From a virus: DNA of 64,000 bases. This document shows positions 630 to 17,999 of this stretch, in pieces (within the stretch, counting starts at the first letter, position 1; each line of letters begins with the position of its first letter). Where the stretch lies: IMG/VR virus record IMGVR_UViG_3300031578_000001; one strand, given 5' to 3'. The notes beneath the pieces were generated by a model. It saw only the letters and a list, made by a program, of their open reading frames with translations. It was not told where the DNA came from and did no database searches. The translations under genes were made by a program, and so were the position numbers.

Positions 630-1025
630 ATGGAGTCCGAATTCTTGAAGGGTCTCGAGAGAGGCTTCGGTAAGGAAGCCGGAGCAGAGGGGATCATGGC
701 GAAGGTTGCCCAGGGTCTGAAGGAGATGCTGGAGGAAAATGGGGAGGAGGGCAAGGGCAAGGAGAAGGGCAAGGAAAAGGAAAAGGAAAAGGAAAAGGAA
801 AAGGAAAAGGAAAAGGAGAAGGAGGAGGAAGGCAAGAAGGCGGAAGCCTCTGACGTCACCTCGTCCATCCGCAAGAAGTTGGGTCTGGACAAGGAGGCGC
901 AGGTAGTTCCGGCCGCCGTCGACTCCATCGCAGCCAAGATCCAGGCCAAGCTCGGATTGGACAAGGAGGCGCAGGCGTCTCCTGAGGGGTGGAAGGGGAA
1001 GGTGACCGCGGTTCTCGATAAGTAG
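630..1025 (+). CDS. KE-repeat low-complexity protein, probably virion-associated
   Basis: Strong AGGAGG SD; poly-KE tract; duplicated GLDKEAQ motif. Confidence 0.7.
   Translation: MESEFLKGLERGFGKEAGAEGIMAKVAQGLKEMLEENGEEGKGKEKGKEKEKEKEKEKEKEKEKEEEGKKAEASDVTSSIRKKLGLDKEAQVVPAAVDSIAAKIQAKLGLDKEAQASPEGWKGKVTAVLDK
771..824 (+). repeat. (AAGGAA)n hexamer tandem repeat encoding poly-KE
   Basis: About 7 perfect AAGGAA units followed by AAGGAG variants. Confidence 0.9.
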
Positions 1026-1037
1026 CGAGGTCCCTTC

Positions 1038-2435
1038 GTGCTGCTTTCCCAGATCAAGGTCGCGTTAGACCGGAAGGGAGGAGAGCACGGTGAGCCCGGC
1101 TACTTCGCGCCAGGTCTTCCTTCCAGGGAGCTGAAGAGGGTCATTCCCTCGGTCAATAAGCCCGAGGAATGGGAATTCTCTGAGCAGATCCACGACGCTG
1201 ACCGGGCCGGACGGCATAGCGACCTTCGCCTGTCGGATGGTAGAACAGCCTTCTCGTGGGCGCTGCGGAAGGGCCTTCCGAGTGAGCCTGGGGAGAAGCG
1301 ACTCGCGATTCGGCAGCCGGACCACGCGCCATCCTATCTTCCGTTCAGCGGAAGGATCGAATCCCGATACGGACATGGTACGGTCGATGTGAATCGTATT
1401 GGTCCCGTACGGGTCCTTTCCGCATCCCCATCCAAGGTCAGAATCGTGGCCCTCGACCGCAAGAATCCCCAAGAGATTACGATGGTCAAGACCCCCGGTC
1501 AGGGCAAGGATAAGTGGCTGGCCATCGACACGACGCCGACTGTGAAGTCTCGTCCGGACATCGTGCTCGGCAAGGAAAAGTTCAGGCTCAGCTCTGCGAA
1601 CGATCTTGGTCGGTTTCTCAGCGGGAAGTTCATCATGGCCCCTAAGATCGACGGAGGGGCCGTAACAGTGAATCTGGGTGACCGAGTCGAGATATTTTCC
1701 CACGCGCCATCGACGAGCGGAGAGCTCGTCAATCACTCCTACGTGTTACCAACCGGCGAGGTGCCAAAGGATTTGAAGGGTACCCAGATCAAAGCCGAGA
1801 TCCTCGGGAGGCAGGGCGGTAAAGTGATCCCTCTCAGGACGCTTGGTGGGATCTTGAACTCGACTCCTGAGAATGCACTCGACCGGATGACAAAGGAGAA
1901 GATCAAACTATTCTTGGCCCCATGGAAGATGGTTAAGTTCCGCGGAAAGAGGGTGGACGATCTCCCGTATGAGGATCAGCTCGATCTGATGAAGGAGGTC
2001 ACTAAGAAGGTAGATGCCCCTTGGATCCGCATACCCCAGGCGTCGACTCCGACGTCCAAGATAAAACTCATCGAGGCCATGAAGAGCGGCAAGCATCCCC
2101 TGACCGATGAAGGACTCGTGGCGTGGCCCAAGGGGGCTATCTCTCCGATTCCGACCAAGGTCCCATTCAACGCCCACTCTCAGGTCTATATTGTGGACGT
2201 ATATCCCATGGTCTCCGGAGGTAAGAAGATGGCCATGGCTGGGGGTTTCTCGTATAGCCTGAAGCCAGGAGGGCCGGTTGTGGGGAACGTGGGAACTGGA
2301 TTCACGATGCAGGAGAGGAAGGAATTCTGGAGGGATCGAGAAGCTCTCAAGGGTGCCAAGATCGTGATCGAATCCAAAGGCCAGTTCCCCTCCGGAGCCC
2401 ACCGAGCTCCGAGTTACAAGTCTCTTCATTTGTAG
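1038..2435 (+). CDS. LigD-like protein: 3'-phosphoesterase domain fused to an ATP-dependent DNA ligase (adenylation + OB domains)
   Basis: N-terminal QIHDADRAGRHSDLRL...FSWALRKG matches the LigD PE motif (HxA..HxDLRL). Ligase motifs: KIDG (motif I), EGLVAW (motif IV) and OB-fold GNVGTGFT. Confidence 0.8.
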   Translation: MLLSQIKVALDRKGGEHGEPGYFAPGLPSRELKRVIPSVNKPEEWEFSEQIHDADRAGRHSDLRLSDGRTAFSWALRKGLPSEPGEKRLAIRQPDHAPSYLPFSGRIESRYGHGTVDVNRIGPVRVLSASPSKVRIVALDRKNPQEITMVKTPGQGKDKWLAIDTTPTVKSRPDIVLGKEKFRLSSANDLGRFLSGKFIMAPKIDGGAVTVNLGDRVEIFSHAPSTSGELVNHSYVLPTGEVPKDLKGTQIKAEILGRQGGKVIPLRTLGGILNSTPENALDRMTKEKIKLFLAPWKMVKFRGKRVDDLPYEDQLDLMKEVTKKVDAPWIRIPQASTPTSKIKLIEAMKSGKHPLTDEGLVAWPKGAISPIPTKVPFNAHSQVYIVDVYPMVSGGKKMAMAGGFSYSLKPGGPVVGNVGTGFTMQERKEFWRDREALKGAKIVIESKGQFPSGAHRAPSYKSLHL

Positions 2436-2505
2436 GGACTTGAAATTTTTCTGGAAAGAGGCATCCTCTTATTGAACAGTTGACCCCGTTATTCAGGAGG
2501 AAGCA

Positions 2506-3030
2506 ATGTCTCAATCGCCGTATTTCGGTTTCACCCTGTATCCCGAAGGGGACATGATCTTCGGGAAAGACCTGAACAAGGCCATCGTCGACATCGAAGA
2601 GAAACTCCAGGTGGCGCTCTTCGAGGAGCACGTACAGGATGAGGGCGTCTCCCTGGCCGTCTCCGTCGTCGGCATTCCGCTGACGACATCCTGGCTGCCG
2701 ATTCCCATGACCGGCGGTCGCGAGTTCGCCTTCGCTCGTGCCGGGAAGATCACCAAACTCCGGGCGATCGTTTTCAACGTCGTCACGCCGATCAACGGCG
2801 ACATCGAATTGGCGCTGGCTGAGGTCTCGGCTCCTACGGTGCCGATCACCCCGGTCATCACCTTCGCTGCCGCCATCGACGAGGTGGTGACGCCGCCCGT
2901 GCCTCCGACCTTCCTCGAGAGCGAGGAGTTCACGCTCATCGCCAAACTGCCGGTCGCGGGCGCCGCGACGGCGGGCGTGTTCGACATCCAGGCCGTGGTC
3001 GAGGCCGACCTCGAGCGCCAGGGGGCGTAG
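2506..3030 (+). CDS. hypothetical protein, possibly virion
   Basis: 174 aa; AGGAGG SD; beta-rich composition. Confidence 0.7.
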   Translation: MSQSPYFGFTLYPEGDMIFGKDLNKAIVDIEEKLQVALFEEHVQDEGVSLAVSVVGIPLTTSWLPIPMTGGREFAFARAGKITKLRAIVFNVVTPINGDIELALAEVSAPTVPITPVITFAAAIDEVVTPPVPPTFLESEEFTLIAKLPVAGAATAGVFDIQAVVEADLERQGA

Positions 3031-3039
3031 GAACGGTAA

Positions 3040-3205
3040 CAGCGCTGCGGGGGGCTCCGTCACCGCTTGACGGTGGCGACGGGGCCTCCCAAAGCGGTAT
3101 TTTCGTCAGAATAACCTTGTGTCGTACCAAACGGATTGGTACAACAGGGAGAACTGGACTGAGCATCCCATCCCATCCCATTAGGGACATCAGCCTCTTG
3201 TTCCC
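3040..3205 (+). ncRNA. candidate structured non-coding RNA or leader
   Basis: Intergenic segment with several hairpins (ccgtc-accg/cggt-gacgg; gtacca/tggtac), closed by a terminator. Confidence 0.25.
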
Positions 3206-3211
3206 GGCAGG

Positions 3212-3240
3212 ACCCGCGCTCCCGAAGCGCGGGTTTTTTA
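3212..3240 (+). terminator. intrinsic terminator
   Basis: acccgcgct-cccga-agcgcgggt stem followed by a T-tract. Confidence 0.85.
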
Positions 3241-3325
3241 TTGGATCGAGTCGCCTTGACTCCGATCACGGCCGTCCGTATCCTTAACTGAAAGTGCAGA
3301 ACCTACATCAGTAAGGGGAGCACCT

Positions 3326-3535
3326 ATGACGATAATGGAAGTCGCGTTAGCTGAAGAGCTCGAGAAGATCGCCCTGTTCGGCAAGAAGCCCAAGGGGATG
3401 TTTCCGACGTTCAAGCGCATCGGAAGGGCCGCCAAGTGGGGAGGCCTGGGTCTTGGCGCTCTCCTGGCCTACGGAGCCCTCAAGGGGGCCACAGAGGCCA
3501 AGGACGAGATCAAGAGGGAGAGGGAGTCATACTAA
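3326..3535 (+). CDS. small protein with ELxKIA motif and hydrophobic segment
   Basis: AEELEKIALF; GGAG SD. Confidence 0.7.
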   Translation: MTIMEVALAEELEKIALFGKKPKGMFPTFKRIGRAAKWGGLGLGALLAYGALKGATEAKDEIKRERESY

Positions 3536-3762
3536 TGCTTCAGAGGATCCAGAAAGCATTCGTCGAAGAGATCACTAAGATCGCTTTCGGTTTCCCAGGG
3601 ATGCCCCAACCCATGCCGATGCTTCCGTCGGCGAGGCCACCCGTCTTCCAGACCGCTCGTCCGATGGCACCTTCGGTTCCACCCCCGCGTCCGCAGATTC
3701 CCGTTGTCGGGGCTGCTACCGGTTCGGGAGCCTTGGCGTCTGGATTGATGGGGAAGCGATGA
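3535..3762 (+). CDS. small Pro-rich protein with F-x-E-E-I-x-K-I-A motif
   Basis: TAATG-coupled start at 3535 (MLQRIQKAFVEEITKIAFG). Confidence 0.65.
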   Translation: MLQRIQKAFVEEITKIAFGFPGMPQPMPMLPSARPPVFQTARPMAPSVPPPRPQIPVVGAATGSGALASGLMGKR

Positions 3763-3956
3763 GAGTGGGTCGCATCAAGAAGTCAACCAGGGACAAGCTC
3801 CCGAAGAATCTCGGTATCCCGAAATTCTTCAGCCCGTCCGACGTCGACCGTCTTGTGGCTGAGCGGAAGGCAGACCCGCACATCACCTGGCAGCAGGCCT
3901 TCGATCGTGTCGTTTTTAATTCGATTCCGGACATCAGGGCACTGGTGAATCAATGA
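3759..3956 (+). CDS. hypothetical protein
   Basis: ATGA-coupled on both sides. Confidence 0.6.
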   Translation: MRVGRIKKSTRDKLPKNLGIPKFFSPSDVDRLVAERKADPHITWQQAFDRVVFNSIPDIRALVNQ

Positions 3957-4378
3957 GTCTATTCCCAGCATTCTGCGATGAGCTCTCCAACAGGGGCCTT
4001 GGTCCGAAGATCTACAGGGTCGAGGCTACCCCGGAGGAGATTGAGAACCTTCTCGAGGTGGGACACGCCGGCACGGAAAGCGGTGTGGCCGGATTTTCCG
4101 GATCAGACGCCAGGCGCGTCTTCAAATCACTCCTCACATCGGAGGGAGGCAAACAGATCATCCGGGGCGTCTTCAACAAATTCGATGCAGAGGCGGAGAA
4201 AGTTCGCAACTTGAAGGACGCTTTCGTTCGTGGCCTCCTCAGGGCGCGAAGGGATCTTCAGGGTCCTTCCCCTCACCAGAGGAAGGATCTCATGTCCATG
4301 ATCTTCCAGTCCGACGGCTCCTCCGACTCCTACTTCTCACCTAAAACAAATGGGCAGGAGGGAAGAGCCGGGGAGTAG
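3953..4378 (+). CDS. hypothetical protein (partial AFxDEL motif)
   Basis: ATGA-coupled; AFCDELSN near the N-terminus. Confidence 0.6.
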   Translation: MSLFPAFCDELSNRGLGPKIYRVEATPEEIENLLEVGHAGTESGVAGFSGSDARRVFKSLLTSEGGKQIIRGVFNKFDAEAEKVRNLKDAFVRGLLRARRDLQGPSPHQRKDLMSMIFQSDGSSDSYFSPKTNGQEGRAGE

Positions 4379-4439
4379 GTCCCCGGCCCAACCCATTCAT
4401 GCTTCTGACGGTGCGACTGAGCACTCGAGGAGGCATGAC

Positions 4440-5090
4440 CTACCCTCCCAGCGGGCGAAACCTTCGTGCTTTTTAGCGTGGAGCGGGTGCTCGGGACACC
4501 TCTCACGGAGCGCAGCGAAGAGAGAGGTGGGACGGAGCACGAAGCGAAATGCTAAATACTTCCATCTGCACCATTGATCTGGTTCTTATGGCAGCGGTTC
4601 GCTGCCCCATCCGGTCCTTGGATCACGACTGAATCTTTCGGAGCTCTTCCCTCTCTTCCCGGCGACCGGAGGCATCCGGTCTCACCCATCCCGTGAAGAG
4701 CAACCTATTCTATCTCTTGCCACGATCCATCTCACGGAGCGTAACCACGAAGGAATTTCCTGATGACAACATCGGAGTCTCTCCGTCGGAGGCCTGCCAC
4801 GTAGCATGAGGCGGTCGACGAGAGAGGCCGGACGTCCAAGACGTCTCGTCTTGGTCGTCCGGAAGAGCGGGGCTATGTTACCCAAGGTGTGTTGGGTGGC
4901 CGGCCCTTGGAGATATGAGGATGAGAAGGACTCCGAAAGATTCCACGGAGATCTCCGCGGAATCTTTCGGAGGATGGTCACCGGACGGATGAGCCTCGTG
5001 ATACGGGTAGGCCGCCGGCGGAGGGGCGAGATGGATTCTCAGGAGGGGTGTGGTTTGCGCTGGTGACAGCGGTTCGCTGCCATTCCCTTG
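4440..5090. ncRNA. candidate large structured ncRNA or cis-element (e.g. origin) between convergent gene blocks
   Basis: No credible ORF. Many long stems: 4462-4470/4536-4544, 4497-4504/4522-4529, 4664-4681, 4828-4862, 4931-4972 and 4724-4733/5028-5037. Confidence 0.45.
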
Positions 5091-5106: not shown

Positions 5107-5532
5107 TCAGGATTCGGTCGTCTTCTTCGAGACGATACCGTAGTAGTTGGAGATCTTGTGGGGTCCAGGAGCCAGTTGTTCGACTTCGAGAGCGATTTGC
5201 ATCTTCCCGTTCTGTGGGATCGCCTTAGAGATCTTGACGAGGAGATCTCGGCCCATGGATAGGATGCGGCATCCGCCCGTGTCCGATCCGGAGATTACCT
5301 GGTTATCCTTGTCGGTGCCCTTGATCATGTCTCGGACGAAGGTGATGAACTCGGCCACGCGTGTCGATGTGGACGGGGAAACAATAACTTCTCTCGGGAA
5401 TGCGATGCACTTTCCGTCCTTATCCACGATTCGCAGAGTTCCTGAGAGATCGTGGTCCTCCACGAACGCCTGGGCTTCTTTGACTTTGTCCGATGGTATT
5501 TTGATCCCGAAGTCTTCGATCTCTACGGACAT
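5107..5532 (-). CDS. hypothetical protein
   Basis: 141 aa ORF with a GGAG SD. Confidence 0.65.
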   Translation of the reverse strand: MSVEIEDFGIKIPSDKVKEAQAFVEDHDLSGTLRIVDKDGKCIAFPREVIVSPSTSTRVAEFITFVRDMIKGTDKDNQVISGSDTGGCRILSMGRDLLVKISKAIPQNGKMQIALEVEQLAPGPHKISNYYGIVSKKTTES

Positions 5533-5927
5533 GGTGATCTCCTTTTCCTGAACAGGAACTCATTAACTTCCTTCTTGGTCATGCGAGAAACTCCCATGTC
5601 TTGTAGCGCCATGATGTTTCCGACCTGGGTGCTGACCTCATTGTGAATCATTTCCTTGATCTTCCGCATGTCAGTCATGGGCGTCTGACTCTGCTGTGGC
5701 GGTTGACGAGTTGCCACGACTTCAAGCATATGTTCCATGAGATCGACGAGGAACATGCTCATCAATATTTCGAGACGGTCCAGCGCTATGCCGTAGTTGA
5801 TCTGCTGGCCGTCACGCACGGTGCTCAGCACGATCACGTTGGTGCCGATGTCCTTGAAGCGCTCTTTGAAACCCTCCTTGAACGCTCCGAGGATCTTGAA
5901 GGAGATCTCCCTGAGGTTAATTGTCAT
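5523..5927 (-). CDS. hypothetical protein
   Basis: Start reassigned to MTINLREISF at 5927, overlapping the upstream gene's stop. Confidence 0.55.
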   Translation of the reverse strand: MTINLREISFKILGAFKEGFKERFKDIGTNVIVLSTVRDGQQINYGIALDRLEILMSMFLVDLMEHMLEVVATRQPPQQSQTPMTDMRKIKEMIHNEVSTQVGNIMALQDMGVSRMTKKEVNEFLFRKRRSPCP

Positions 5928-6828
5928 CCTCGTCCTCCTCGTCTTCGATCGAGTCAGAGGCCGTGTCGATTGCCCTGTCGAGGATCCGGATATCATTCCT
6001 GAGAATGGCCGTCCTCTCCGCGAACAGATCGTCATCTCTGAGCTCGAGGATCCTCGTCTCGACCAGGTTGTTGATGTAGTCGGGATCGAGGGCATCGAGT
6101 TCCCAGGACTCTTCACCGTATTGTTCCACGTAGGCCGCATACCTGGCGTCGGATGTCTTGCCCGCGTTGGGAGGAGGACCAAGTTCCTCGATCTGGTCCA
6201 TGTTGAGGGCGAGACGTTCCATCGTGACGGGTTCACGGAAAGTGCTGAACCTATCCTCGATGTCCCGGGTCATGTCAAGCCCGGACGGATCGTGGTCTCC
6301 GAGGTGCAGGATGTGGATCTTTTTCCCCTCGAATCTCTTTTGTCTTGCGCGTCTGGCCGCACGCCAGGCGGCAGATTGGGATACGAACCCCTTACATGCG
6401 AAGTATGTCACGTCGAGTTCGGTGCAGGGGCGTGCGACCACATCGACGAGCGCCTCCTTCTCGATCCACACTTCTACATGGACCGGCTGGTTGGACCACA
6501 TGTCGATGGCGTAGGAGTTCTTGGCCGACTCGAGGACCGATTTCGGATTCTTCCAGTGTGAGTTGGACCTGAAGTGTCTCGTTCTATCCACGATGGCATC
6601 CCAGTCGATCATTCCCGCCAACCGGCCGTTGGATATGACGGTGCCGAGGTTCTTGTAGGAGCGGTTGTTGTTCGGGATCAGAGCTCTCGCCACGAACTGG
6701 TAGTAGAGCTGCCGTAAGGTGAGGACGTAGCCCTTGGCAGCATACTCTTCGATGATCTCGTTCGCCTGTTCGATTCGTTTGCGCGAGTCTGGTCTAAACT
6801 CTTTTGATTCGTACCTAATCAGCATCAA
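5917..6828 (-). CDS. Topo VI subunit A / Spo11-like winged-helix + Toprim protein
   Basis: TLRQLYY winged-helix motif; VWIEKEAL; YFACKG; ILHLGDHDPSG (DxD Toprim); ELDAL. Confidence 0.65.
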   Translation of the reverse strand: MMLIRYESKEFRPDSRKRIEQANEIIEEYAAKGYVLTLRQLYYQFVARALIPNNNRSYKNLGTVISNGRLAGMIDWDAIVDRTRHFRSNSHWKNPKSVLESAKNSYAIDMWSNQPVHVEVWIEKEALVDVVARPCTELDVTYFACKGFVSQSAAWRAARRARQKRFEGKKIHILHLGDHDPSGLDMTRDIEDRFSTFREPVTMERLALNMDQIEELGPPPNAGKTSDARYAAYVEQYGEESWELDALDPDYINNLVETRILELRDDDLFAERTAILRNDIRILDRAIDTASDSIEDEEDEDDN

Positions 6829-7004
6829 TCCTCCTTGTGTTGCGGGAAGACGCCGACGATGTCGTAGTCTGAACGATAACTCGAGATCTCGGAATTCTTA
6901 GCTTTGTCCACGGCCTTGGCCATCGCTTCGATCTCGTTGCTCGCCTCGACCTCTACTTCGATTTCGCCGAGAGAGGTCCTGAGTACCTTGACCTTGTACT
7001 TCAC
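6825..7004 (-). CDS. small hypothetical protein
   Basis: GTG start with GGAG SD; IEVEVEASNEIEA motif typical of small phage proteins. Confidence 0.5.
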   Translation of the reverse strand: MKYKVKVLRTSLGEIEVEVEASNEIEAMAKAVDKAKNSEISSYRSDYDIVGVFPQHKED

Positions 7005-7566
7005 GGGGCATGCTCCAATCCAGGCCCAGAGAGTCGAGAACCTCGCGGGCCTCTTCACTGAGGTTCACGAATTCGGTGAATGCTGCAACCAGATCTGTGC
7101 ACCTACCCTCTGAAGCGGTACGACCGAATTCGGCACTGATCTCCTTGTACGGAGGGTGGTATCTGTGCTTCCGCACCAGGTCGTTGCCCAGGTGCATGAG
7201 GACCTCCTTGAGATCCTTGCGGTGAGGGCTTTGAATCATGCGGCGCAGGGTGTCGATGAGACGGTCGACCGCTGATACGCCGTACTGTAAGACGAGCTGC
7301 TCGAAGACATCGCCGTTGTCGAGGCCGTGGGCGATGATGTGCGCGACGTACTCCTCGGTGGTCATCGCCTCCGGACAGCAGCCTTGGCAGAATGGTTTGG
7401 CTCCCTCTTCGCCTTCGAGGTCTTCCATGCCGGTTGCCGGCTGCGCCCAGACGATCGTCTCTTCCGATGTCCACTTCTTGCAGACGGAGCACTCGATCTC
7501 GGGAATGCCTGGTGGATCGGAGGGCGGCGGAATCCTCCTGATTCCTTCGTACGTGTAGTCGGTCAT
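6898..7566 (-). CDS. hypothetical protein with CxxC...CxxC
   Basis: ORF starts just downstream of the terminator; its C-terminal tail overlaps the next gene and may not be functional. Confidence 0.45.
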   Translation of the reverse strand: MTDYTYEGIRRIPPPSDPPGIPEIECSVCKKWTSEETIVWAQPATGMEDLEGEEGAKPFCQGCCPEAMTTEEYVAHIIAHGLDNGDVFEQLVLQYGVSAVDRLIDTLRRMIQSPHRKDLKEVLMHLGNDLVRKHRYHPPYKEISAEFGRTASEGRCTDLVAAFTEFVNLSEEAREVLDSLGLDWSMPREVQGQGTQDLSRRNRSRGRGEQRDRSDGQGRGQS

Positions 7567-7584
7567 TGGTGCCTCTCTTAATAG

Positions 7585-7615
7585 AAAAGGAGGGCCGGGA
7601 TATTATTCCCGGCCC
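7585..7615 (-). terminator. intrinsic terminator closing the effector-CRISPR-tracr unit
   Basis: 9-bp stem gggccggga/tcccggccc; on the minus strand followed by TCCTTTT. Confidence 0.7.
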
Positions 7616-7624
7616 CCCTGTGGA

Positions 7625-7850
7625 TGGTATGTGCCCGGCCCCGTAGGACCGGGCACTGCACACGGGAAAGTCCACCCCGGGACAGCCCGGGGCGAATGGG
7701 GAACATGTCCCCTTCCTGCTTCATCGACGACTGCTCCTCCACCAGATGGCTTCAGAGACTTACATCTCTCCACAGGCGTTAGGTTTCCGCGCACTTCGCG
7801 GTACCATGCACCCGCCCCTTTCGGAGCGGGAGATCATTCAGACTGGCTGT
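7625..7850 (-). ncRNA. candidate tracrRNA / omegaRNA-derived scaffold
   Basis: Anti-repeat at 7658-7673 (minus-strand GGACTTTCCCGTGTGC) pairs with repeat nt 12-27. Hairpins at 7631-7656, 7675-7692, 7698-7712 and 7811-7830. Confidence 0.6.
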
Positions 7851-7852
7851 AT

Positions 7853-8186
7853 ACCAACCTCTCTATGTGCGTGGGTTAGACGCTCGAACTTCACGTTAGT
7901 CTTCCCACGGCATCCAGTCTCCCCCATGTGCGTGGGTTAGACTCCTCGATGCTGATCCGGACCGATTCGGCGCCCCAGTCCTCCCCGTGTGCGTGGGTTA
8001 GACAGACCGACGTTTTGGGATTCGCCCGAGAAGCGCCAGTCCTCCCCGTGTGCGTGGGTTAGACCATCCTGTCGTTGACGACTGCGTCAGTGGGCTCCAG
8101 TCCTCCCCGTGTGCGTGGGTTAGACATCTTGAGTAGCTTCCTCGGCTCATGGATGTGCCAGTCCTCCCCGTGTGCGTGGGTTAGAC
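7853..8186 (-). CRISPR. CRISPR mini-array: 6 repeats (29 nt), 5 spacers (32 nt)
   Basis: Repeat (minus) GTCTAACCCACGCACACGGGGAGGACTGG at 8158-8186, 8097-8125, 8036-8064 and 7975-8003 (identical). Degenerate copies at 7914-7942 and 7853-7881. Constant 61-nt period. Confidence 0.97.
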
Positions 8187-8209
8187 ACCAATATACGGTA
8201 TCCGAAGAA

Positions 8210-9496
8210 TCAGCGGATCGCAACACCAAGACCATCCTGCATGAGATTCTTTACGGCATTGGTCTCCCTTTCCTCGCTCATCCCGCATTCGTCACATACG
8301 AATATCCGTTTACTGAGCGGGAATTCTTCTTTCACGTATCCACATGAACTGCATTTCTTACTCGACGGGAAACCAGTATTCAACACCAGAAGGTCTGATC
8401 CGAATTTGGGACACTTGTATTCAAGCATTTTCCAGAAGATTCCCCATCCCTTATCGGCTATGGCGCGGCTGTACTTCTTCTGTTCAAGGAGGCGATCGAT
8501 CCTCCAGTCTTCGATGATGATCGTTCTGAAGTTCTTAGCGAGATAGGTGGATAGTTTATTAAGGAAGTCAGCCCGTACGAATCGAACTCGGCGATGGATG
8601 AGTGCTCTTCTGGTTCTGCTTTTCTTATAGTTGTTGGATACAGGCTTCACCGGTTTCCTGTCGGGCCTCATGGGCCTTCCGAGCCTACGTCTCGCCACTT
8701 CCCTATCTACCCGTATCAGCTTCTTGAGAGCATGATCGAGAGGGGAAGGGTGATCTATCCTGTATGTATTCCCGTGGACAGATACGGATCCGTCAAATTT
8801 GTCCGAGTCCATCTCAGGCGTTTCCCCGTCAGATCGCATGATCGTGAATGGAAATTTGAGGCCGAGGTGAACGGCTATGGCTGGCCCGTTCCTCATTCCG
8901 GGTTTAGCCGATTTATCCTTGCAGCGAAATGATATATACCATCGATCCACATCACGCTTCACCGTGACACCTATGATGTCTCCTCTGGCGACGTGTGTTG
9001 TTTCTTTCGTTCTGATGGTCTTCAGTGTGGGAAGGGTTACAGATCGATCGACCGCCCTGATGGTGCGGCCGTAGAGATGGAAAGACTCCTCCGACGGAAT
9101 CGCTTTCCTCCATTTGGGGAATCCAACTTTCCTTCTCTGCCCCTTAGGCTTCTTTCGGTTCGAGAAGAACGCTGAGATTGCTTTATCGAGATCCCTGAAC
9201 GCACCTTCAACAGTGCCTCTCGCAGTTCCGAGTATTCCGACTTCGATAAGTCGCTCTTTTCCACGATCACTGTTTATCCATACTGTCCACTCCTTCTGGA
9301 GGGATATTGATTTCGGCATGCGTTCCCTATTGTCTTTCGGTAGATTGAGCCAGTCTTTGATCCTTCCGAGTGCCCAGTTCCAGGCGTATCTGGCCATTCT
9401 TGCATGGCGCTTCATTTCCGTTATCTGGGCATTGTTCGGGTCGAGTTCGTATTTGAGAACCTTGACTCGGTCTGGTTGCGCATCGGTCTTAGCCAT
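8210..9496 (-). CDS. tnpB: TnpB/Cas12f-like RNA-guided protein with predicted inactivated RuvC, CRISPR-associated
   Basis: TnpB architecture: ARYAWNWAL helix, GFPKWRK, IIIED (RuvC-II E329), W..F..MLEYK, CSSCG...CDECG Zn ribbon. RuvC-I reads AIAVHLG (D to H210) and RuvC-III reads ERETNAVKN (D to E411). Confidence 0.85.
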   Translation of the reverse strand: MAKTDAQPDRVKVLKYELDPNNAQITEMKRHARMARYAWNWALGRIKDWLNLPKDNRERMPKSISLQKEWTVWINSDRGKERLIEVGILGTARGTVEGAFRDLDKAISAFFSNRKKPKGQRRKVGFPKWRKAIPSEESFHLYGRTIRAVDRSVTLPTLKTIRTKETTHVARGDIIGVTVKRDVDRWYISFRCKDKSAKPGMRNGPAIAVHLGLKFPFTIMRSDGETPEMDSDKFDGSVSVHGNTYRIDHPSPLDHALKKLIRVDREVARRRLGRPMRPDRKPVKPVSNNYKKSRTRRALIHRRVRFVRADFLNKLSTYLAKNFRTIIIEDWRIDRLLEQKKYSRAIADKGWGIFWKMLEYKCPKFGSDLLVLNTGFPSSKKCSSCGYVKEEFPLSKRIFVCDECGMSEERETNAVKNLMQDGLGVAIR

Positions 9497-9521: not shown

Positions 9522-9626
9522 TAGCGGGGGCAGGAATCGAACCTGCGACCTCCGGTGATTACACCAATAGGTTCCCGTGGGTTCCAAAGGCGAGTGCCGG
9601 TGTGCCTACCACTGCACCACCCCGCA
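9522..9626 (-). tRNA. tRNA-like gene (initiator-tRNA-like acceptor stem) with ~32-nt insert in the anticodon arm; anticodon unresolved
   Basis: GCGGGG/CCCCGC acceptor; GTGC/GCAC D-stem; AGGTC variable loop; GCAGG-TTCGATT-CCTGC T-arm; ends A-TCA. Confidence 0.7.
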
Positions 9627-14718: not shown

Positions 14719-16170
14719 CTACAAACCGAGGTTTCCCAGCTGGTATCCGAGCCAGAGCGCATGGCCCACATCGGACACCAGGCGCTCTTCGATGATCGTG
14801 TCCAGGATCTCCTGGCGTGAGCCTACGATTTCCAGGATAGCCGGACCGTTCGGGGCCATGAGGGTAGCCTTGAACTCGTAGTTAGGGGCATGATCGAACG
14901 TCCATTGGCCTTTTTCGTCCCACCATTCCCGCACCCTCCGGTGCTTCTCCACGATCTCGAGAGCCGGAGCCCAGTCGCGTTCGTAGATGTGGGCCGACTG
15001 GGAGATGATGGTGAGGTCGCCGAGAGCGTAGCGCTTGTCGTCCTGGTAATCGCCCTTGCAGGCCGCGGTCAGAGTTCTCACGAGATCCTGTAACCTCATC
15101 AGGCCATACGCATTCTCCGGCCATCCGAAGTACATATCGTTGGACCTGATGGTGGCCGTCATATGGAGGGCGCCGTTCATGATCCTGAACCAGAGATGGT
15201 TCAGGCACGGACTATGCTTCCTCGTCCACTTCGGATCCCAGAGGCTGATGACCGCGGATCGTGAGGACTCATCTTTAGCCAGCTTCTGTGCTACCTTCTG
15301 GATCTGATCGACGCCGAAATAGCCTCGGATCAGGTTACCGTACGTGTAGGTCACGTCCTGGTCCTCGAAGTTGGTGATGAGCTTCGGATAGTAGGCTTCC
15401 AGGTGATCGTGATCGAATGGAATGTACTCCGGGATATCACCTGGTTCAACTTTCAGTTTCTGATCGCTGATCACGACGGCGAGGTTCATGAGTTCCCTGC
15501 TTGGTTCACCGTAGTGGGTGTCGATCACGGTGCCGAATTTCATGATCTGGTAGAGTAACTCCAGGTAGCCCTCTTCAATGGTCTTGACCCGGATGGGGTG
15601 GAGGTTGTTCGGAGATGGGTAGGCGATCGGGTTGATCCTTGGAGGGGCTATCTCGGTCGCCGGCATGTCCCTTGGGTCGTCGCTGGTGAAGCGCGGGTCG
15701 GTCAGGGTGCTCACGAGGAGTTCGGCCTTTCTGAGTTCCACGACCTTGATGTTCTTGAGAAGTGTGACGATCATGCTGAGCGGGATGTTGTCCCAGATTC
15801 TGATGCTGTTCCAGTCGGGCTCGTCGATCGTGTAGTAGTTGTCCTTGTGGACGAGGCTCTCTGGACGCCTCTTCATCTCGAGGAATGCCTCGCTCGCCCC
15901 CGATAGGTCTGGGCCACAGAATATGATGTTCCGGATGGAAGGGGCCGCGAGCAGGTTTCGGATCATGATGTCGATCCCACGGGAGGCCGTATAGAGGTTC
16001 CCGATGATCGCGATGTTCGCGAGGGGGCTGTCCTCGCCCACGGTCTTGCGCCACGCCTCGTCGAGCTTGCTGAGGAAGACTTCCCTCTGTGCCCACCCGC
16101 ACACCACTGCGATCGATGATTTTCTGTTCCCGACGATGACCTGGTCAGGGAGGAACGGAGGCCACTTCAT
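14719..16170 (-). CDS. thyA: thymidylate synthase fused to an N-terminal MtrA-like domain and a C-terminal DUF4346-like domain
   Basis: SRSAVISLW, catalytic SPCL, RSNDMYFGWPEN and QSAHIYERD motifs. N-terminus IAIIGNLYT..GI..MIRNLLAAP.IR.IIFCG.D; C-terminus HALWLGYQLG. Confidence 0.75.
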   Translation of the reverse strand: MKWPPFLPDQVIVGNRKSSIAVVCGWAQREVFLSKLDEAWRKTVGEDSPLANIAIIGNLYTASRGIDIMIRNLLAAPSIRNIIFCGPDLSGASEAFLEMKRRPESLVHKDNYYTIDEPDWNSIRIWDNIPLSMIVTLLKNIKVVELRKAELLVSTLTDPRFTSDDPRDMPATEIAPPRINPIAYPSPNNLHPIRVKTIEEGYLELLYQIMKFGTVIDTHYGEPSRELMNLAVVISDQKLKVEPGDIPEYIPFDHDHLEAYYPKLITNFEDQDVTYTYGNLIRGYFGVDQIQKVAQKLAKDESSRSAVISLWDPKWTRKHSPCLNHLWFRIMNGALHMTATIRSNDMYFGWPENAYGLMRLQDLVRTLTAACKGDYQDDKRYALGDLTIISQSAHIYERDWAPALEIVEKHRRVREWWDEKGQWTFDHAPNYEFKATLMAPNGPAILEIVGSRQEILDTIIEERLVSDVGHALWLGYQLGNLGL

Positions 16171-16234
16171 GAAAAAACCTTTCATACGAAAAAACCCGAT
16201 GCACTTGGCATCGGGTACAGGAGGACGACGGCTT

Positions 16235-16465
16235 CTATCCGAACTCGGGTGGAGCTGGAAGGCGCGTGACCTCCTGTTTGACTGTGGTGAGCATCGGGAT
16301 CTGGTTTCCCTGGCTATCCAGGACGTACGTGAGGAACACGGCACCGCTCACCTGCTGCGCCCGTCCATCGCACGATTCCCACCCCTGGTAAAAGCGGAGG
16401 ATGGGTTGGGATTGCCCGTCGGATCTCTTGTTGAGTCCGGGGGCAAACTTGCTGAGCGGTATCAT
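16235..16465 (-). CDS. hypothetical protein
   Basis: MIPLSKF start with a GGAGGAG SD. Confidence 0.55.
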   Translation of the reverse strand: MIPLSKFAPGLNKRSDGQSQPILRFYQGWESCDGRAQQVSGAVFLTYVLDSQGNQIPMLTTVKQEVTRLPAPPEFG

Positions 16466-17504: not shown

Positions 17505-17999
17505 CTACCTGAGAGCCACCGCCTTGATCTTTCTGAGGTCGATGTAGACGATCGGCTTGTCCATGGCCATGGCATACTCAACGCAGTTGGCCGTTCCTCC
17601 TCTCGATCGATCCCACACGGCCAGGAGAAGATTGGACTTATCAACCATCCATTTGTTCCTATCCTGCATCAGTTTAGGGCTGTAGGGTTGATCGGATACC
17701 AGAACCTGCGTCACGAATGGGTTGAAGAGAATTCCGCGGTATCTGGCCCTGCTCGTGTCGGGCCACAAGGCGTCCTGATTCTTGCACGGGATGCAGGCGA
17801 CCACGGTGATGCAGGCGGAGATTCCTGCCTCGGCCCACAGCATGTCCACACCCAGGGCCATTCCGCTCAAGATCCGTTCAGGTTTGTACTTATCGATGAT
17901 CTCGTCCATTTCGATTCTGATCAGGTTAGAGATCGGCCCGTTCCCGTTGAACTCGTTATTGAGCTTCCCGGGTCTGTGTCCAGTGCAGGCGATATACAT
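17505..17999 (-). CDS. YspA/YpsA-like SLOG family protein
   Basis: ACTGHRP, SGMALGVD, RNKWMVD, AVWD...GGTANCVEYA motifs. Confidence 0.85.
   Translation of the reverse strand: MYIACTGHRPGKLNNEFNGNGPISNLIRIEMDEIIDKYKPERILSGMALGVDMLWAEAGISACITVVACIPCKNQDALWPDTSRARYRGILFNPFVTQVLVSDQPYSPKLMQDRNKWMVDKSNLLLAVWDRSRGGTANCVEYAMAMDKPIVYIDLRKIKAVALR

Follow-up and report, generated by a model that had tools for sequence, protein, structure and literature searches.

Can a TnpB-like protein with an altered nuclease site, encoded on a phage next to a guide array of its own, be directed to DNA, and does it cut the DNA that it finds? This question is raised by a locus in IMG/VR virus record IMGVR_UViG_3300031578_000001, of which a stretch of 64,000 nucleotides (nt) was analysed as one strand, 5' to 3'. 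We refer to this whole stretch as the window, and the locus spans positions 7,585 to 9,496 in it. An earlier note, made from the sequence alone, had described here a TnpB-fold open reading frame (ORF) of 428 amino acids (aa), a 23-nt gap, a co-oriented CRISPR array with six repeats, a structured RNA and a terminator, and all of these lie where it had placed them. It had also taken the effector, the array and a candidate tracrRNA (trans-activating CRISPR RNA) to form a real TnpB-derived module, which is supported by the conservation of this arrangement in relatives and by homology of the RNA to omegaRNA. Based on the analysis reported here, we consider it somewhat probable that this phage locus encodes a complete CRISPR module of TnpB descent, which works with two RNAs and binds DNA without cutting it.

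An intact TnpB-like effector with an altered RuvC site

The effector gene (8210-9496, minus strand) is intact over 428 aa, without frameshift, and encodes a protein of the TnpB fold in which the CxxC...CxxC Zn ribbon is intact and the C-terminal tail is absent. Pfam matches to HTH_OrfB_IS605 (PF12323), OrfB_IS605 (PF01385) and Cas12f1-like_TNB (PF07282) are present, and the protein has the combination of HTH/WED, RuvC and Zn-ribbon TNB fold that characterizes the TnpB superfamily. An AlphaFold (AF2) model (predicted local distance difference test, pLDDT, 90) has template modelling (TM) scores of 0.71-0.73 to TnpB structures and superposes best on ISFba1 and ISDra2 TnpB. With a profile of the clade searched against PDB, ISDra2 TnpB was matched at E=2.8e-83, while Cas12n, Cas12f and Cas12m were matched much more weakly. 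Among the NCBIfam TnpB models only guided_TnpB was passed (158 bits against a cut-off of 100); with the IS200_TnpB and IS607_TnpB models, the effector scores 183 against cut-offs of 425 and 350, respectively. Judged by sequence, the effector derives from TnpB and lies outside every named Cas12 model tested.

The RuvC residues are His210 (RuvC-I), Glu329 (RuvC-II) and Glu411 (RuvC-III), and they share alignment columns with Asp191, Glu278 and Asp361 of ISDra2 TnpB; the four Zn-ribbon Cys residues likewise align with those of relatives and of ISDra2 TnpB. The Asp-Glu-Asp (D/E/D) triad of transposon-type proteins, present in 243 of the 261 aligned relatives, is absent from the effector, which has H/E/E instead. 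Thus, the reported changes at RuvC-I and RuvC-III, with Glu329 and the Zn ribbon intact, are recovered in the alignment to ISDra2 TnpB and the 261 relatives. H/E/E is also the state of P0001-4 and P0122, and His occupies the RuvC-I position in nine aligned relatives altogether (HEE, HED or HQE), two of which retain the RuvC-III Asp. In P0121 and P0134, the sister proteins to the clade of the window, the three RuvC sites read A/Q/G, and about 620-660 nt of gene-free DNA follow their genes. Compared with a homologue of 79% identity, the effector gene has a dN of 0.12, a dS of 1.18, a dN/dS of 0.10 and zero indels, and it is therefore under strong purifying selection.

A CRISPR array followed by an omegaRNA-like RNA

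The CRISPR array (7853-8186, minus strand) is co-oriented with the effector gene and consists of six repeats of 29 nt (8158-8186, 8097-8125, 8036-8064, 7975-8003, 7914-7942 and 7853-7881) and five spacers of 32 nt with an exact period of 61 nt. The four gene-proximal repeats are identical (GTCTAACCCACGCACACGGGGAGGACTGG, minus strand) and, with four identical 29-mers at a fixed period, the array is not a product of chance. Repeat 5 has three substitutions and repeat 6 is degenerate. This decay runs away from the gene and thereby suggests that the leader is on the gene side, where 23 nt (8187-8209, minus strand) separate the effector stop codon from the start of repeat 1. The leader ends in a conserved ATAT(A/C)TTGGT motif, which is found before repeat 1 in the window and in the related loci L001, L002/L007 and L006 and which may serve as a promoter or in processing. 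On the plus strand, the window's repeat starts with GTCCTCCCCG, and the 29/32 geometry is that of type I-E arrays. The repeat pattern had no match in IMG/VR or in the species genomes searched, and these searches brought up no comparable array in a host.

Past the array lies a structured RNA (7620-7852, minus strand; folding z -5.9 against shuffles), the candidate tracrRNA, with an extra hairpin at 7631-7656. A covariance model built solely from 20 canonical omegaRNA scaffolds of TnpB relatives matches the core of this RNA (7689-7809, minus strand; E=3.7e-13) as its sole match in the window, and the same model matches L087 (E=8.9e-9) and L001 (E=3.4e-7), each directly past the array. Run unfiltered over 7840-8330, which covers the ORF 3' end and the repeats, the model gave nothing above noise. 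Two motifs of the post-array RNA recur right behind the ORF core of canonical loci, ACGCCTGTGGAG in 23 and GAAGCAGGAA in 39 of them, and GAAGCAGGAA codes for a conserved Lys-Gln-Glu in the C-terminal tails of canonical TnpB relatives. Between the window and L001, 10 of the 62 predicted base pairs are altered on both sides and still paired, and the G-U pairs are consistent with the gene's strand only. By these comparisons the helper RNA is clearly homologous to the TnpB omegaRNA scaffold. Because the omegaRNA model matches after the array and not in the ORF 3' end, the scaffold that overlapped the tnpB 3' end in the ancestors is now located behind the array, and the tail that overlapped it is lost from the protein. 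A derivation of the window repeat from the omegaRNA 3' end was also considered; it is unsupported by the unfiltered model run, with only L173 and short similarities in its favor. The RNA is followed by an intrinsic terminator (7580-7619, minus strand; called at 7619-7588) with a 13-bp GC-rich stem and then UUUUCUAUU; in the corresponding place, L001 carries another hairpin and T-run.

A 13-nt element in the helper RNA (7658-7670, minus strand; CUUUCCCGUGUGC) is complementary to nt 12-24 of the repeat (GCACACGGGGAGG), giving 13 contiguous pairs, including two G-U pairs, and leaving ACUGG before the spacer. This anti-repeat site is the best duplex found between the repeat and the RNA, and the three substitutions in repeat 5 preserve all 13 pairs. 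In L001, the corresponding site (3626-3640) has changed together with its repeat (GCUUCC-A-GUGUGUGG versus CCACACAC..GGAAG). In L087, UAACCACCG (5144-5152), right after GAAGCAGGAA, is complementary to CGGUGGUUA in an unrelated repeat, and GUGACGG then comes before the spacer, like the xxACGG end of canonical omegaRNAs. In all three loci, the anti-repeat is located in the 3' part of the scaffold. Because changes in the repeat are accompanied by changes in the anti-repeat in three loci, we read the post-array RNA as a tracrRNA, a role that is well supported but not proven; in vivo, repeat and anti-repeat would pair.

The module in related loci

Relatives were gathered with a profile run exhaustively against 1.84 billion representatives, among which the window's clade is very small. 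In IMG/VR, there was no relative of the effector above 35% identity. Every member of the clade with DNA past the gene has repeats there. L002/L007 (79% protein identity) and L006 (49%) have a homologous repeat behind the same leader motif, L001 (63% identity) has about 14 repeats, which become degenerate with distance from the gene, and several short contigs of relatives end exactly at repeat 1, as assemblies do at arrays. L001, L002, L007 and L008 are syntenic with the window phage; the loci of this lineage have kept their repeats, helper RNA and protein through a full replacement of the spacers. In L002, repeat 3 is followed (1783-1906) by the final ~100 nt of the effector gene in a second, slightly diverged version, along with the leader and repeat 1. 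Either the assembly is chimeric at the strain level here, or the gene end, the leader and the array have truly been duplicated in tandem.

L087, an unrelated element that bears an integrase, provides an independent context. Its effector (3364-4557) is 38% identical to that of the window and has H/E/E. Behind the gene come six to seven copies of a 36-nt repeat of unrelated sequence and, after these, an RNA of the same kind; the geometry of its array is 36/35, unlike the 29/32 of the window. A tyrosine integrase gene (2064-3362) ends 1 nt before the effector start codon, and the same order of integrase and effector genes was also called on two further contigs carrying P0122. Further upstream, the 10.9-kb L087 contig encodes a ParB-like 621-aa protein.

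Other, more distant loci with His at RuvC-I differ in layout. Downstream of the gene in L172 (HED), 29-nt repeats recur with a 61-nt period in at least 17 copies, and the repeat differs from that of the window; no match to the omegaRNA model was found in this locus. A 159-aa gene called inside the L172 repeat array (gene 5893-6372, minus strand; array 5958-7006 and beyond) is probably a false call. In L173/L174 (HED, phage-like context), short repeat units flank both sides of a scaffold that is matched by the omegaRNA model (E=2.7e-9). In L173, units of the CACAGGTGTGGGTGATGG type lie around the omegaRNA-like scaffold at 5128-5651, and the 3' end of the scaffold resembles the repeat; to judge from these elements, the arrangement seems to stand midway between one omegaRNA and an array. 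In L170 (HEE), a scaffold-like start comes right after the gene, and no repeats were found in L171 (HQE). An adjacent array is thus a conserved feature, with arrays following the genes in L001, L002/L007, L006, L087, L172 and L173. In quick trees, P0122 and the HED proteins fall outside the window's clade. Approximately unbiased (AU) tests did not reject one clade, either for P0122 together with the array clade (p 0.87) or for all eleven altered proteins (p 0.65). As the trees scatter and the AU tests reject no single clade, the His change may have arisen once or several times.

Spacers

The five spacers of the window have no target in the 64 kb of the window and no match to flanking DNA. Across four loci, 26 spacers were available; none is common to any two loci, and none has a target in any of the retrieved relative loci. 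For the arrays of the window and L001, a comparison with 50,697 phage records gave matches at chance level only (E of 3 or more), and three 22-nt spacer seeds found no target in IMG/VR. With 0 of 26 spacers from four loci having a target, the silencing of host or competitor genes that the earlier note had proposed is not established. Because the spacers differ completely among related loci, our guess would be that targets change, as for example with competing mobile elements, rather than that there is a fixed regulatory target.

A model for the module and its alternatives

In the model that we favor, the array would be transcribed on the strand of the effector gene, and the spacer-proximal half of each repeat would pair with the anti-repeat of a ~230-nt tracrRNA encoded just past the array. 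This tracrRNA would be what was once the omegaRNA scaffold, an element that overlaps the tnpB 3' end in canonical relatives. The 428-aa effector would bind the pair of tracrRNA and CRISPR RNA (crRNA), with the spacer on the 3' side of the repeat in the manner of TnpB and Cas12, and the spacer would lead the effector to complementary double-stranded DNA beside a predicted target-adjacent motif (TAM) or protospacer-adjacent motif (PAM). There, the His-Glu-Glu site would most likely hold the target without cutting it, and transcription or replication of the bound target would be blocked, as by Cas12m2 with its His-Asp-Asp site. The RuvC site may still process RNA.

Binding without cutting is favored because the site is His-Glu-Glu instead of Asp-Glu-Asp and because there is a precedent in Cas12m2, in which the first RuvC Asp is a His and which holds one Mg and the non-target strand, does not cleave double-stranded DNA and silences by binding (PMC10442227). 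Moreover, the His is conserved over deep divergence and therefore has a role, and as the sisters P0121 and P0134 have lost all three residues, cutting seems dispensable in the clade. Several points weigh against this model. Regarding the site, His and Glu are both metal ligands, the His is retained across proteins at ≤40% identity, while drift would be expected at a site that is simply dead, and, as Altae-Tran et al. argue (PMC10691335), conserved RuvC replacements often represent a rearranged but active site. Regarding the RNA, the energies of the duplexes between repeat and tracrRNA are, taken alone, not significant when compared with shuffled repeats (48, 15 and 47 of 300 shuffles perform equally well), and the anti-repeat can also pair within the helper RNA, with GCAGGAA. 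Finally, most of the close loci represent one phage lineage, as indicated by synteny, and hence are not independent, and no protospacer was found in the searches above from which a target class or a TAM could be read. Of the earlier description of the effector as nuclease-dead, what holds is that the altered RuvC site is under selection; the death of the site is not established, since His and Glu can both bind metal and the His is conserved over deep divergence.

These points lead to the most serious alternative, in which the same dual-RNA module has His-Glu-Glu as a rearranged active center and cuts or nicks its targets, perhaps with another metal. The module would then be an ordinary phage-borne interference nuclease against competitors, like the Cas12r or TranC systems. 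The conservation of the His in nine relatives with HEE, HED or HQE, two of them with the RuvC-III Asp, fits this alternative, as does the view that conserved replacements in other TnpB branches are compatible with activity (PMC10691335), and the phage Cas12r and TranC systems tested so far are nucleases. However, the sole solved case with a RuvC-I His, Cas12m2, binds a single Mg without cutting DNA, and the A/Q/G sisters P0121 and P0134 have kept their ~620-660 nt of non-coding DNA, which suggests that cleavage is dispensable. We therefore regard an active center as unlikely, although it deserves serious consideration. It is improbable that the effector is instead a guide-loaded targeting subunit that recruits a partner, for instance an L087-type tyrosine integrase or a phage protein. 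The integrase gene 1 nt from the effector start in L087, the same gene order on two more P0122 contigs and the integrase-linked inactivated TnpBs noted previously (PMC10691335) would fit such a role, but neither the window nor its phage relatives have an integrase or a conserved enzymatic neighbor.

Least probable of all, in our estimate, is that the array is an independent I-E-style phage mini-array that feeds a host Cascade and lies by chance beside a decaying TnpB gene. Its 29-nt repeat, its 32-nt spacers and the reverse-complement start described above do resemble I-E repeats. However, the repeat is in no genome or viral contig searched, the direction of decay places the leader on the gene side, and the effector gene is under strong purifying selection; moreover, L087, with a wholly different 36-nt repeat, keeps the layout of gene, array and scaffold together with a matching anti-repeat.

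Returning to the model of binding without cutting, we suggest, tentatively and with some reserve, a broader version of it. In this version, the family of TnpB-sized effectors with His at RuvC-I, carried by phages and integrative elements, would be a natural miniature, multi-guide, tracrRNA-dependent DNA clamp. It would be the smallest natural system of the CRISPR interference (CRISPRi) type and would have reached the Cas12m solution independently. Its relatives would display steps from an omegaRNA to a split RNA, from L170 with the scaffold after the gene, through L173 with repeats on both sides, to the window and L087 with the array and then a scaffold with an anti-repeat. If binding without cutting is true, then few natural programmable DNA binders that have a multiplex guide array would be smaller than this effector of 428 aa, which would be useful for compact repression or base-editing fusions. 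The family would also be a second, independent case of an Asp-to-His change in RuvC besides Cas12m, with a general lesson on how nucleases become clamps. The clear homology between the putative tracrRNA and the omegaRNA of close TnpB relatives, together with the intermediate layouts, offers an unusually readable origin of a CRISPR guide from a transposon RNA, and the module adds to the cases of phages with RNA-guided weapons of their own.

Genomic setting and neighboring genes

The module is carried by a bacteriophage of ~182 kb, and the window looks viral, with virion, tail and phage replication families present. Domains were searched in 31 larger ORFs, most of them at positions 1-20 kb in the window, and no tnpA or other transposase, Tn7 (tnsB, tnsC, tniQ), cas1 or cas2 domain was found among them, in agreement with the earlier note, which had reported none nearby. 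In the window and its phage relatives, the flanking genes are without known domains, and conserved neighbors merely reflect genome synteny.

A tRNA-like gene (9522-9626, minus strand; Rfam tRNA 46.7 bits) lies 26 nt upstream of the effector gene. It has normal acceptor, D and T arms and 41 nt in place of the 9-nt anticodon loop, and ARAGORN makes no call on it; it may be an intron-bearing tRNA or a tRNA-like element. We rejected it as a part of the module, as it is absent in the relatives with 79% identity and a transfer-messenger RNA (tmRNA) is in that position in L001. This tmRNA (788-1156, plus strand; Rfam 103.5 bits) is full-length, lies on the related phage contig ~190 nt upstream of the L001 effector gene and suggests a bacterial host.

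Four other genes of the window gave matches. In a 465-aa protein (1038-2435, plus strand), there is a LigD 3'-phosphoesterase domain (PF13298, E=9.6e-14), and phage ATP-dependent DNA ligases (phrog_114) are matched by the C-terminal part. A 303-aa protein (5917-6828, minus strand) gives an end-to-end match (E=1.5e-111) to phrog_6247 ("DNA topoisomerase"), is without a Pfam match and is 72% identical to its L001 counterpart. In a 541-aa protein (14719-16344, minus strand), the C-terminal half matches thymidylate synthase (PF00303, E=5e-12) and is preceded by a long unexplained N-terminal part. Lastly, a 164-aa SLOG-type protein (17505-17999, minus strand) has DprA/YpsA-like matches with E of about 1e-8.

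Comparison with known systems

Type V systems have arisen from TnpB repeatedly, and ~40-50 V-U groups have been described, some with altered RuvC sites and some phage-borne (PMC10691335, PMC12669027, bioRxiv 10.64898/2026.03.27.714800). The novelty of the locus was, therefore, overstated in the earlier note, as repeated TnpB-to-Cas12 transitions, altered RuvC sites and phage-borne cases were already on record. In having a TnpB-sized effector that groups among canonical TnpBs, an array downstream and no cas1 or cas2, the module resembles the V-U and TranC systems. TranCs (transposon-CRISPR intermediates) are of TnpB size, and their omegaRNA is split (Jin et al., Cell 2025, cited by PMC13565253 and by bioRxiv 10.64898/2026.03.27.714800). 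As described in these citing sources, they would share with the module the division of the omegaRNA into tracrRNA and crRNA, and some members are phage-borne (CauTranC9); the tested members are, however, D-E-D nucleases, whereas the window effector has H-E-E, and in the window the scaffold lies past the array and not between gene and array. The match between LaTranC and P0001 is weak (54 bits). The branch, with this set of features, matched no named family among those tested (Cas12m, Cas12n, Cas12f, Cas12k, TldR and LaTranC), and it may belong to one of the groups V-U6 to V-U45, of which V-U24, 43 and 44 have altered RuvC sites.

The nearest solved structures and sequences are those of ISDra2 and ISFba1 TnpB (PDB 8EXA, 8H1J, 8IAZ), the omegaRNA scaffold of which is homologous to the helper RNA. 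By contrast to these proteins, the window has a multi-spacer array and not one fixed, flank-derived guide, its RNA would be split, its RuvC site is altered and its C-terminal tail lost, and there is no transposase among the scanned ORFs and there are no transposon ends. A TnpB borne by an IS200/IS605 or IS607 transposon was rejected for the lack of a transposase domain in the scanned ORFs and for the five-spacer array in place of a single guide. TldRs (bioRxiv 10.1101/2023.11.30.569447) are similarly TnpB-derived, with a damaged RuvC site and presumed binding rather than cutting, but have one fixed guide to a neighboring host gene, whereas the array of the window is variable. With spacers that all differ among loci and none of which matches flanking DNA, the module is not a TldR of the fixed-guide type found at fliC or oppF loci.

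Among phage systems, Cas12r of the Thermus Lalka phages, a protein of 564 aa without a tracrRNA, requires its RuvC Asp for interference (bioRxiv 10.64898/2026.04.20.719267). Like the window, these phages encode an effector of TnpB descent, and only a few bases behind it lies a short array with degenerate 29-bp repeats and 31-33-nt spacers; unlike our favored model, Cas12r is an active nuclease, and it belongs to a thermophile TnpB branch, in a comparison made by description. Membership in Cas12n (V-N, former V-U4) or Cas12f (V-F) was rejected as the effector scores below ordinary TnpBs on the subtype models. The PADLOC matches to Cas12u4 (195 bits) and Cas12f (181 bits) are non-specific, with canonical TnpB relatives at 264-320 bits, and RdCas12n scores 76 bits with this protein versus 104 bits for ISDra2 TnpB. 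Cas12k and the CRISPR-associated transposons (CAST, V-K) were set aside because the ORFs scanned include no Tn7-like tnsB, tnsC or tniQ.

The closest parallel at the catalytic site is Cas12m, whose clades have HDD, HEK or HQK there (PMC10442227). Both families share the change of the RuvC-I Asp to His (HEE, HED and HQE in the window's family), the association with an array, the lack of adaptation genes and the location on mobile elements. However, Cas12m has ~600 aa, a REC2 coiled coil and a single crRNA without a tracrRNA. With an effector of 428 aa and a TnpB-like architecture, and with a Cas12m profile match (E=5e-9) that covers only the C-terminal 120 residues at the RuvC/TNB end, membership in Cas12m (V-M) was rejected. 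Thus, what distinguishes the module is a Cas12m-like His in a TnpB-sized, putatively tracrRNA-dependent effector, a scaffold that lies past the array, and relatives with intermediate layouts.

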